Source of the DNA: Candidatus Aminicenantales bacterium | Lineage (GTDB): Bacteria > Acidobacteriota > Aminicenantia > Aminicenantales > Saccharicenantaceae | Assembly: GCA_049513915.1 (NCBI GenBank) | Contig: JBEKVN010000002.1 | Coordinates: 242 to 64,241, forward strand | Reading direction: 5' to 3' | Length of the DNA: 64,000 nucleotides | Shown here: positions 23,230-24,958 of the stretch, piece after piece | How the letters are laid out: each line of letters opens with the position of its first letter | Position numbering within the stretch: position 1 is the stretch's first letter | Notes under the pieces: model-generated | Databases searched by the model: none | Seen by the model: the letters and a program-made list of their open reading frames with translations, nothing else | What the model was told of the DNA's origin: nothing | Made by a program: the position numbers and the translations under genes

Positions 23230-24714
23230 GTGATGACCGCGAAGCCCGGCCTACGGATGAGGATGGAGAAGGATTCGCTCGGCCAGAAAGCTGTCCCGGC
23301 CGGGGCCTACTACGGGATCCAGACGCAACGGGCCGTCGAGAACTTCCCGATCAGCGGCCTCCGCGCGCCCTCCGTCTTCATCGAGGCCATGGCCCGGATC
23401 AAAAGGGCCGCTGCGCGCGCCAACCGTCGGCTGGGCCTGCTCGACCGGAAACGGGCCGATGCCATCGTCGAGGCATGCGACGAGGTCCTGTCCGGGAAGC
23501 GCCACGACCAGTTCGTCGTCGACGTTTTCCAGATGGGCGCGGGGACGTCGTTCCACATGAATATGAACGAGGTTATTGCCAACCGGGCCGAAGAGCTTCT
23601 GGGCGGCCGCAAAGGGCGGTACCGGATCGTCCATCCGAACGATCACGTCAACATGGGGCAGAGCACCAACGACGTTTACCCCACGGCCATGCGGCTGGCG
23701 ACGCTCGATCTGCTGGAAGCGCGGCTTCGCCCCGCCCTCGACGAGTTCGCGGCTGCCCTCGGGCGCAAGGCCCGGGAGTTCGACGGTGTTCTCAAGTCCG
23801 GCAGAACCCACCTCCAGGACGCCGTCCCCATCCGGCTCGGCCAAGAGTTCGCCGCCTACGCCGTCGCGGTCCGCAAATCAACCGCCGCGCTCGACCGGGC
23901 CGCGCGCTCGCTCCGCGAGCTCGGCATCGGCGGCAGCGCCGTCGGCACGGGGCTGAACACGGACCGCCGGTACGCGGGCCTCATGGTTAGGCTTCTGGCC
24001 GGCGACACGGGGCTTCCGCTCAAGGGCGCCGCCGATCTCCGCGAGGCCATGCAAAGCCTCCGCCCGTTCGCCGAGGTGTCGTCGTCGCTTCGGAACCTGG
24101 CCCTCGAATTGAATAGAATCGCCAACGACTTGCGGCTTCTCGCGTCGGGGCCGCGCACGGGGCTGGCCGAAATCTTGCTCCCCGCGTCGGCCCCCGGCTC
24201 GTCCATCATGCCGGGCAAGGTCAATCCGAGCCTCCTCGAGATGCTCAACCAGGTCTGTTACCAGGTGATGGGCTGCGACCTCGCGGTCGGCGCGGCCGTG
24301 CAGGCCGGACAACTCGAGCTCAACGTCATGATGCCGGTCGTGAATTTCAACGTGCTGTTCATGATCACGATCCTGGCCAACGGCCTCCGGGAAGTCCGGG
24401 CTAGGGCGATCGAAGGGATCACGGCGGATGCCGCCCGCTGCCGGATGTATGCCGAAGCCAGCCTGGGACTCGTGACCGCCGTCTCTCCCGTCATCGGATA
24501 TGCCGCCGCCGCGGCCGCGGCCAGAGAGTCGCGCCGGACGGGAAGACCGGTCCCGGAGATCCTCCTGGAGCAGGGGATTCTGGACAAGGCGTCCCTCTCC
24601 CGGCTCTTAGACCCGGCCGCGATGACCAAGCCTGGGACGCCTGGGGGTCGTCGAGTTAGGGGTCGGGTTAGGGGTCGGGTTAGGGGTCGGACCAAATTAG
24701 GTTATTGTAAATAA
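23230..24714 (+). CDS. aspA: Class II fumarase/aspartase-family lyase, most like aspartate ammonia-lyase; C-terminus artificially extended through a repeat element
   Basis: Signature GSSIMPGKVNPS. N-terminal region YYGIQTQRAVENF...DQFVVDVFQMGAGTSFHMNMNEVIANRA...HPNDHVNMGQSTNDVYPT looks more like AspA than FumC. The last ~15 aa (RRVRGRVRGRVRGRTKLGYCK) are encoded by a tandem 12-mer of the repeat at 24643–24701. Confidence 0.7.
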   Translation: MMTAKPGLRMRMEKDSLGQKAVPAGAYYGIQTQRAVENFPISGLRAPSVFIEAMARIKRAAARANRRLGLLDRKRADAIVEACDEVLSGKRHDQFVVDVFQMGAGTSFHMNMNEVIANRAEELLGGRKGRYRIVHPNDHVNMGQSTNDVYPTAMRLATLDLLEARLRPALDEFAAALGRKAREFDGVLKSGRTHLQDAVPIRLGQEFAAYAVAVRKSTAALDRAARSLRELGIGGSAVGTGLNTDRRYAGLMVRLLAGDTGLPLKGAADLREAMQSLRPFAEVSSSLRNLALELNRIANDLRLLASGPRTGLAEILLPASAPGSSIMPGKVNPSLLEMLNQVCYQVMGCDLAVGAAVQAGQLELNVMMPVVNFNVLFMITILANGLREVRARAIEGITADAARCRMYAEASLGLVTAVSPVIGYAAAAAAARESRRTGRPVPEILLEQGILDKASLSRLLDPAAMTKPGTPGGRRVRGRVRGRVRGRTKLGYCK

Positions 24715-24946
24715 ATAAAATAACCGGAATTTGGCCACCGTTTTTGGCCTTAACTATTTGTTTTTGGGGTCGAAAAAGAGGACTTAAGCTATTCAGCCAC
24801 AGAATATCCGACAAAAAGTATCCCTTATTGCTAGATTCCTTAACTCTTGTTTTTCGGCCTCCAAAACGCGGACTTAAGGCATAAAAAGGCCCCATTTAGT
24901 CGTTTATCTGTATTATTATAAATAAGTTAAGTTGGTCCGACCCCAA
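24643..24946. repeat. Composite palindromic repeat locus C, MITE-like: 3.5 tandem GTTAGGGGTCGG 12-mers and an inverted box, two hairpins, then a direct TTGGTCCGACCCCAA box
   Basis: 12-mers at 24655–24690 followed by ACCAAATTAGG. Hairpins at 24748–24788 and 24838–24879. Terminal box at 24932–24946. The boxes form inverted termini about 250 bp apart. The left end lies inside the 3' end of the aspA-like ORF; the right end abuts the hrpA start. Confidence 0.8.
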
Positions 24947-24958
24947 ATCTGCTATAAT
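24932..24958 (+). promoter_or_regulatory. Possible hrpA promoter built on the repeat box: TTGGTC-N15-TATAAT ending 6 nt before the ATG
   Basis: TATAAT at 24953–24958 and TTGGTC (part of the TTGGTCCGACCCCAA box) at 24932–24937. The spacing is short (15 nt), so this is weak. Confidence 0.25.

Follow-up and report, generated by a model that had tools for sequence, protein, structure and literature searches.

A miniature inverted doublet between a lyase and a helicase gene of an Aminicenantales bacterium and its likely descent from a Y1 tyrosine-transposase element

TIRtrons, in which the gene for a Y1 transposase (the enzymes are termed TIRYT) is flanked by long inverted repeats, are the closest described counterparts of the element reported here, a 268-bp inverted pair of repeats designated locus C (24680-24947). 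It lies between an aspartate ammonia-lyase-like gene (aspA) and an hrpA-like helicase gene in a 64-kb stretch of DNA from Candidatus Aminicenantales bacterium (contig JBEKVN010000002.1); this whole stretch is called the window, and positions refer to it unless a locus in another genome (prefix L) is named. Locus C is likely to be a non-autonomous doublet of ~110-nt terminal repeats, similar to REPINs and to miniature inverted-repeat transposable elements (MITEs), whose parent is a ~0.95-kb element of the TIRYT/TnpA-Y1 class 2 kind. As judged from complete copies in other genomes, this parent appears to be insertion-sequence-like, with a single gene encoding a Y1 (HUH) tyrosine transposase.

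In the work that described TIRtrons, a GGGGWSAS motif occurs in many or the majority of the repeats, the repeats may overlap the 3' end of the gene, dispersed repeat families are found as singles, dimers and groups, and Acidobacteria carry a distinct group (Di Nocera et al., 2013, PMC3733652). A later classification equates TIRYT with TnpA-Y1 subclass 2.1, enzymes of ~238 amino acids (aa) with the motifs NH[VYF]H, W[EQ] and YIELNP, gives NH[VIYF]H, W[EQ] and Y-x3-NP as signatures of class 2, and reports no sequences like repetitive extragenic palindromes (REPs) near subclass 2.1 genes (Quentin et al., 2018, PMC6006769). The present family resembles TIRtrons in having a ~260-aa Y1/HUH transposase between long inverted repeats unrelated to GTAG REPs (L033, L011, L171/L172 and L173), a repeat that overlaps the 3' end of the gene, units dispersed as singles and dimers, and occurrence in Acidobacteria and Deltaproteobacteria. 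As far as consulted, neither paper (PMC3733652, PMC6006769) describes a ~110-nt repeat, a near-invariant 15-nt box, spread across phyla, or the tandem duplications at the element ends that we call end-stutter. In the library searched, the name TIRYT is used by these two papers only.

Three other systems come close. REPINs and their REP-associated tyrosine transposases (RAYTs) share the inverted doublet of a short repeat that folds into a long hairpin, a Y1 enzyme flanked by the same repeats, and intergenic copies (Nunvar, 2010; Bertels and Rainey, 2011, PMC3116915). Unlike them, the consensus unit here has no 5' GT[AG]G at the hairpin foot and measures ~110 nt as opposed to 20-40 nt, so that it is not a canonical REP/REPIN, and its transposase looks multi-copy and horizontally spread, whereas RAYTs are single-copy and vertically inherited. 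The IS200/IS605 insertion sequences and their miniature derivatives (PATEs) share the Y1 fold family PF01797, the absence of target-site duplications, subterminal secondary structures and internal-deletion derivatives. Their ends, however, are asymmetric instead of long inverted repeats, no tnpB is present here, the transposase is ~110 aa longer, and matches in the PDB to ISDra2 TnpA are not significant (E = 0.85). Classical bacterial MITEs, which derive from DDE elements (Correia, Nezha, TIMEs), are likewise shorter than 300 bp, have terminal inverted repeats, no open reading frame (ORF) and many copies, share their ends with an autonomous partner, and can fuse to or truncate neighbouring ORFs, but here the partner is a tyrosine (HUH) enzyme instead of a DDE enzyme, and the lack of a target-site duplication indicates that locus C is not a DDE-type MITE. 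A literature search for the box sequence returned only unrelated primer matches. On the strength of these comparisons, the element would join the known, little-studied TIRtron/TIRYT kind, a relative of REPIN/RAYT; what can now be placed there is a sequence family defined by a ~110-nt unit, a 15-nt box that is nearly invariant and an autonomous form of ~0.95 kb. Metagenomes from sediments and of anaerobes are rich in this family, whose copies break assemblies.

Architecture of locus C and of its repeat unit

In the region read in detail (24400-25200), an AT-rich island with a GC content of 0.42-0.47, compared with 0.65-0.72 in the flanks, separates the lyase ORF from the helicase ORF. The 13-mer TTGGTCCGACCCC lies on the minus strand at 24683-24695 and on the plus strand at 24932-24944, 249 nt from start to start, and between these copies are two 41-nt hairpin modules (24748-24788 and 24838-24878) that form a 78% identical direct repeat, each an imperfect palindrome of the form CCTTAAG..GTTTT..AAAAC..CTTAAGG. 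Inverted termini about 250 bp apart around two hairpin modules had been described in an earlier sequence-only reading, which called them MITE-like; the arrangement is present, and the label can be sharpened to an inverted doublet of what appear to be ~110-nt ends of a Y1 tyrosine-transposase element, with the boxes pointing outward. The left unit (24680-24791, minus strand; nhmmer E = 2.3e-26) has its box, as the reverse complement, at 24681-24695 and its hairpin module at 24748-24788, and the lyase stop codon TAA (24712-24714) falls in its AT-rich spacer. The right unit (24836-24947, plus strand; E = 2e-27), supported by alignments as the left one is, has its module at 24838-24878 and the box TTGGTCCGACCCCAA at 24932-24946. 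The unstranded central spacer between them (24792-24835) occupies the position held by the transposase gene in complete elements, and no residual transposase coding similarity was detected in the doublet or in this spacer. Folded as single-stranded DNA, the whole 321-nt region reaches -46.2 kcal/mol (z = -3.3 relative to shuffles). The terminal box TTGGTCCGACCCCAA is itself a 4-bp stem with a 7-nt loop.

A known structured RNA was considered as well and rejected, since Rfam gave no family at gathering thresholds over the whole window and only noise at E up to 10 over the locus.

The window holds five exact copies of TTGGTCCGACCCC and one with a single mismatch; at up to two mismatches, six matches are observed where 2.8 are expected by chance. 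Alignment of 146 nt around each copy gave a common order, in which the palindrome is followed by GCCAAAAA.., an AT-rich spacer and ..CAATaAGtTAAnTTGGTCCGACCCCAA. The repeat is thus ~110 nt and not 13 nt long, and consists of a CTTAAG…TTTT/AAAA…TTAAGG palindrome, the AT-rich spacer and the terminal box TTGGTCCGACCCCAA. Across the window, an nhmmer profile of this unit detects exactly six full-length copies with E values from 1e-24 to 2e-28, far beyond chance. All six are intergenic, four as single units and two as the inverted dimer of locus C, the only inverted pair. Across an alignment of 99 units, conservation is 90% or higher for TTT, AAA and TTAAGG, and identity averages 52% in the remaining columns. 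A profile without the box recovered 101 copies; the exact 12-mer follows 90 of them, and a version with one to three differences follows 10 of the other 11.

The associated transposase and competing origins of the units

The pattern TTAAGG-N40-70-TTGGTCCGACCCCAA, with an exact box, was searched in one genome per prokaryotic species and matched 79 stretches, most with an identical 52-nt gap and many abutting contig ends as repeats do. They come from Desulfobacterota, Geobacterales, Syntrophales, Aminicenantes/Acidobacteriota, Nitrospirota, Woeseiaceae and other Gammaproteobacteria, Lentisphaeria, Bacteroidota and Dehalococcoidia. When all ORFs of 150 aa or more in these stretches were clustered, the sole recurring protein family was one that directly adjoins the units; it matches Pfam PF01797 (Y1_Tnp, IS200-like transposase) above cut-off, and its top NCBIfam match is REP-associated tyrosine transposase. 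In L033, a 264-aa transposase gene lies between two inverted units whose boxes point outward (element 1393-2325), with its start codon directly adjoining the left unit and its last ~35 codons inside the right unit; the protein carries the motifs SNHIHL, FWEDRYH and YIDLNM. The same architecture is found in L011 (68-1014), L171, L172 and L173, complete copies being ~0.95 kb long, and L172 is a 971-nt contig that is essentially the element alone. Both repeats keep the same sequence, although only one of them is coding, so that the constraint acts at the DNA level and not solely on the C-terminus of the protein. Transposase-gene fragments beside units mark internally deleted intermediates, such as L065, which keeps transposase residues 1-13 and 213-259. 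Inverted pairs with outward boxes like locus C occur 19 times in other genomes, most of them 214-336 bp long. The transposase family comprises at least ~8000 clusters at E < 1e-10, typically of 263-268 aa and many on ~1-kb contigs, and looks multi-copy in metagenomes and horizontally spread. A search of PDB sequences with the transposase returned only the non-significant ISDra2 TnpA matches (E = 0.85). No target-site duplication flanks the window doublet or the 19 inverted pairs, which is the expected outcome for Y1 transposases.

These data bear on a different origin, in which the units would be ends of a Tn3-family (DDE) transposon and the doublet a miniature element of the TIME type. At 9 of the first 10 bases, the outer end GGGGTCGGAC... 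does resemble the Tn3 inverted repeat GGGGTCTGAC...TAAG, and, judged by eye, an A/T-rich ...GATAAA lies ~36-41 nt in. However, the Y1 transposase is the sole recurrent protein between or beside the units, no DDE/Tn3 transposase is present in the 79 loci, no 5-bp target-site duplication is seen, and the conserved repeat is ~110 nt long with a subterminal palindrome. The exclusive association of the units with Y1 transposases and the missing 5-bp duplication lead us to regard a Tn3 origin as effectively refuted.

Alternatively, the units might be maintained by the host as structural or regulatory elements, for instance as mRNA 3'-end stabilisers, terminators, insulators or protein-binding sites, much like domesticated REP/REPIN populations served by a single-copy RAYT and not as relics of a selfish transposon. 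Such a role would fit the intergenic position of all six window units, the stable fold of the doublet, and the retention of the box, TTAAGG and TTTT/AAAA in orthologous copies of the window and L001 that are otherwise only ~60-67% identical; REPs are in addition generally known to stabilise upstream mRNA, as the abstract of PMC3733652 also states. Against it stand the missing Rfam match and the weak covariation, the presence of the family in many phyla, which fits horizontal spread, an insertion-sequence-like transposase with at least ~8000 clusters and many ~1-kb element-only contigs, and the loss or decay of units without replacement in the close relatives L002, L006 and L166. Taken together, we consider host maintenance unlikely.

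Descent from a TIRYT/TnpA-Y1 class 2 element, our preferred explanation, has several observations weighing against it. The outer end GGGGTCGG fits GGGGWSAS at seven of eight positions, with G for A at position 7, and the L033 protein fits class 2 in NHIH and WE, whereas its Y motif is YIDLNM (Y-x3-N-M) in place of YIELNP (Y-x3-N-P). The invariance of the box in the 99-unit alignment is partly by construction, as the scan demanded an exact box, which the box-free search corrects in part. Hairpin covariation over the 99 units is weak (69.2% of cells paired versus 67.6% in shuffles); the outer stem CTTAA/TTAAG and the inner stem TTT/AAA are well kept and the mid-stem is often unpaired. Because covariation is marginal, the palindrome is treated as a conserved motif pair and not as a proven structure. 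No cognate transposase is present in the 64-kb window, whose sole Y1_Tnp gene is 26% identical and is not flanked by units. The copy at locus C looks old and vertically inherited, with no pair of filled and empty sites that would fix its exact ends. Finally, the mechanism of cleavage and stutter set out below is one that we infer. The insertion itself is a fairly ordinary mobile-element insertion; what exceeds routine annotation of mobile elements is only its end-stutter and the fact that a single intergenic site has been occupied recurrently.

End-stutter and the lyase C-terminus

At the left end of locus C, the 12-mer GTTAGGGGTCGG occurs three times in tandem (24655-24666, 24667-24678 and 24679-24690), within an array that TRF places at 24650-24690 on the plus strand (3.4 copies, 96% matches, score 75). 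Each 12-mer is composed of 4 nt of flank (GTTA) and the 8 terminal nt of the element (GGGGTCGG), and in frame the array encodes (VRGR)n. This triplication and its read-through by the lyase ORF, which ends at 24714, had already been noted and are confirmed. Comparable stutters occur throughout the family, immediately outside the box, and consist of the last 2-11 nt of the element with 4-11 nt of flank in tandem. Such arrays are seen in L040 (GACCCCAAAAT, two copies), in L051, in L034 with two nested events and at the left end of L171, and five or six copies are present in L039 and L047; overall, the repeats are reiterated 2-6 times, often with several independent events per end. Exact junction-spanning repeats of at least 8 nt are found in 21 of 115 copies (18%), compared with 0.4% when random flanks from the same loci are used, and the left end in the window is the strongest case, with a 24-nt match. 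As stutters are family-wide, the triplication on the lyase side belongs to the end of the element and not to the lyase gene.

How such arrays form can be proposed by analogy with IS200/IS605 and TnpA-REP, in which case the elements would be processed in single-stranded form, with the transposase recognising the terminal box TTGGTCCGACCCCAA together with the subterminal palindrome, and cutting and rejoining at the outer end without producing target-site duplications. The stutter may arise by repeated nicking and rejoining, or by nick-primed slippage, by the transposase at the terminus. At the left end of locus C, repeated short tandem duplications over the junction of element and flank were by chance 12 nt long and in frame, so that the lyase now reads three VRGR-coding repeats and the box before stopping in the AT-rich spacer. 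At the right end, the element simply adjoins hrpA's own extended -10, 6 nt from the ATG, with a predicted leaderless transcript. A more specific hypothesis, which we regard as possible yet doubtful, is that stutter arrays are footprints of end processing by this class of tyrosine transposases, involving the CCCC/AA terminus. If it were true, the sequence of the arrays alone would reveal where TIRYT elements are cleaved and how active they are, in-frame arrays would repeatedly give rise to new short coding repeats such as the (VRGR)n tail, and the aspA|hrpA junction, at which relatives variously carry a full element, a doublet or a solo box, would represent a homing hotspot that a pre-existing box created. 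End-stutter is measurable and could steer biochemistry on how tyrosine transposases cut and join.

The outer ends offer a further observation. The 8 nt outside the box, AAATCTGC, are the same at the right end in the window (24945-24952) and in an unrelated copy from an Acidobacteria metagenome-assembled genome (L085, ~5611-5628), where they are duplicated (AAATCTGCAAATCTGC). This may be a coincidence, or the ends of some subfamilies may reach 8 nt further.

The lyase ORF, which resembles aspartate ammonia-lyase and class II fumarase, spans 23230-24714 on the plus strand and probably starts at an ATG near 23260; its homologues, which bear the name aspartate ammonia-lyase, contain PF00206 and PF10415. 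Its frame crosses the 12-mer array and the left box to the TAA at 24712-24714 and gives the tail ...TPGGRRVRGRVRGRVRGRTKLGYCK (also given as ...DPAAMTKPGTPGGRRVRGRVRGRVRGRTKLGYCK), so that the last ~20 codons (about 24650-24714) come from stutter, box and spacer. It had been proposed that the native protein ends near ...LDPAAMTKPG and that the element extends it. Comparison with the 120 best homologues, aspartate ammonia-lyases of Acidobacteriota/Aminicenantes-like genomes, shows that the proposed end is wrong, since 49 of the top 50 do not stop near ...DPAAMTxPG and continue for a median of 25 residues (range 5-52). Among tails of at least 10 residues in the 120 homologues, the median fraction of K+R is 0.33; the window tail has 25 residues and a K+R fraction of 0.40. 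That the element alters the C-terminus therefore stands, the last ~20 codons being element-encoded, but because all orthologous lyases end in basic stretches about as long, the native tail was replaced and not extended. About 60 nt of native tail-coding sequence were swapped for sequence of like charge and length, with the 12-nt period preserving the frame, and the change was probably near-neutral. For annotation, the odd RVRG tail is best recorded as element-derived, in place of a native basic tail.

Orthologues sharing the RVRG-repeat tail had been named as a finding that would refute the earlier reading. One such protein exists, P0001, a 92% orthologue ending in ...GRRVGRVNGGRVRGRVRGRASVFKRK, which includes GRVRGRVRG. 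The agreement is trivial, since its contig (L001) carries the same element, with the same doublet, a 12-mer array of two perfect copies and older degenerate ones, and the same read-through of the left box. In L087 (84%), the native tail and stop codon are intact and the left box starts 20 nt past the stop, the contig ending inside the element. In L167 (81%), the lyase tail ...VRALAVAKNRK likewise reads into the left repeat of a full element.

Lyase tails of this clade are, after DPxxMTxPG, poorly conserved and strongly basic, and more distant homologues have shorter ones. The E. coli enzymes also have shorter tails.

The hrpA promoter and the aspA|hrpA spacer

The ATP-dependent helicase gene hrpA (24965-29332, plus strand; orthologues with Pfam Helicase_C, HA2_C, OB_NTP_bind and DUF3418) begins 6 nt after a perfect TATAAT (24953-24958), and its N-terminus is conserved among orthologues as MDKRE, MDTRE or VDKRE. 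TTGGTC (24932-24937), in the terminal box, precedes the TATAAT by a 15-nt spacer. The sequence-only reading described this geometry correctly and took it to mean that the element may supply the hrpA promoter; it made no remark on the TGc before the TATAAT, which makes the hexamer an extended -10 (TGcTATAAT, 24950-24958, plus strand). This motif lies immediately outside the element and is conserved in orthologous loci.

A hybrid promoter, in which the right end of the element contributes the -35 (TTGGTC) that drives hrpA, would rest on this geometry, which is real, and has precedent, as outward -35 hexamers at insertion-sequence ends are known to create such promoters. On the other hand, TTGGTC matches TTGACA at only three of six positions with a 15-nt spacing, a consensus promoter and terminator scan of 24400-25200 called nothing, and an extended -10 usually makes a -35 dispensable. 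Upstream of hrpA, the sequence is ...GGTCCGACCCCgaatccacccagacttttgTTATAATgcgcgtggtgcgtcATG in L002/L086 (87%; an 86-nt spacer without hairpins), ...ggacttttgTTATAATgcgcttggtgcatcGTG in L006 (86%; a toxin-antitoxin pair is inserted after aspA), ggTTATAATttaggcatcATG in L089 (76%), TAGAATagcgggGTG in L166 (80%) and catatgTTATAATgcgggcATG in L167. TGtTATAAT is present in L002/L086, L006 and L167, and TTATAAT without TG in L089; L002/L086, L006 and L089 are without hairpin units, and L167 keeps its TATAAT beside a diverged full-length element. Moreover, the box in L002 sits 12 nt farther upstream of hrpA than in the window, and across the family -10-like hexamers 15-19 nt past TTGGTC are not clearly enriched (TAnnnT, 10 observed versus 6.3 expected; a stricter match of five of six to TATAAT, 6 observed versus 2 expected). 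As the -10, the TG and the closeness to the start codon are kept in loci without the element, the hrpA promoter is native and ancestral, and a hybrid promoter seems quite improbable. TTGGTC is a weak, incidental "-35", and the element adjoins the promoter without providing it.

The last base of the -10 lies 7 nt before A24965, a spacing typical of transcription start sites, from which a truly leaderless mRNA is predicted. The near-leaderless transcript proposed earlier is plausible, although it would be ancestral and independent of the element, and leaderless or near-leaderless expression of hrpA appears, from the sequences compared, to be conserved in the clade. The helicase can be annotated as probably leaderless, from its own promoter.

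In all seven orthologous loci (the window, L001, L002, L006, L089, L166 and L167), a -10-like hexamer lies 6-14 nt before the hrpA start and there is no Shine-Dalgarno sequence.

The spacer between aspA and hrpA has been occupied in different ways. The doublet is present in the window, in L001 and probably in L087, so that an element in this spacer predates the split from the 92% and 84% relatives. The window and L001 copies are ~60-67% identical overall, and both keep the box and the TTAAGG and TTTT/AAAA motifs. L167/L168 (lyase 81% identical) have a full transposase-bearing element at the same junction; in L167, a complete 260-aa Y1 transposase gene occupies 4455-5237 on the minus strand, its product is 46% identical to that of L033, and the terminal repeats are diverged (GCCCTGGCT...). 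The junction TATAATGCGGGCATGGAC is common to the window, L001 and L167; no nucleotide similarity could be detected between the interior of the element in the window and that in L167. A solo right box, GGTCCGACCCC, lies upstream of hrpA in L002 (11497-11507) and L086 (4470-4480), where it is the only box copy in 21 kb. No element is found at the junction in L006, L089, L166 and L169.

L006 may retain a degenerate trace of the box (GGTCCcGCGGAC) at ~12275-12290. The solo box and this trace suggest either that an old insertion left remnants or that the site is a preferred target.

The junction can be read in two ways, as an old insertion whose decay took a different course in each lineage, or as a box already in place to which elements homed repeatedly. 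The doublet may have descended from the copy at the L167 site or been inserted independently. The spacer looks like a recurrent insertion site. It has also received a PIN-domain toxin-antitoxin pair in L006 (11573-12231) and a CorA transporter gene in L169 (4614-5687).

The four single units elsewhere in the window, all found with nhmmer, are unit A (8102-8213, minus strand), in a divergent intergenic region, and units B (17119-17230), D (34024-34135) and E (38886-38997) on the plus strand. Unit E has a near-perfect hairpin. Unit B carries the box GTGGTCCGACCCC and is preceded by a half-hairpin remnant at ~17083-17094. The ORF at 15799-17100 ends with ...GGLKK* within this remnant (GGAGGACTTAAGAAATAG, 17083-17100), directly upstream of unit B, and is a second case in the window of a gene whose final codons derive from element sequence.

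A different Y1_Tnp-like gene (43053-43733, plus strand) encodes 226 aa with a PF01797 score of 33 bits and 26% identity to the family transposase, and BLASTP places a Phe (VRFIENNP) opposite the catalytic Tyr. Ahead of it, at 42893-43006, are tandem and inverted repeats, two copies of GGAAATTCGGGACAC and three of GTACGTGTCCCAGGAATTTCC, which are unrelated to the 110-nt units. This may be a separate, possibly inactive, locus of the TIRtron/REPtron-like kind.

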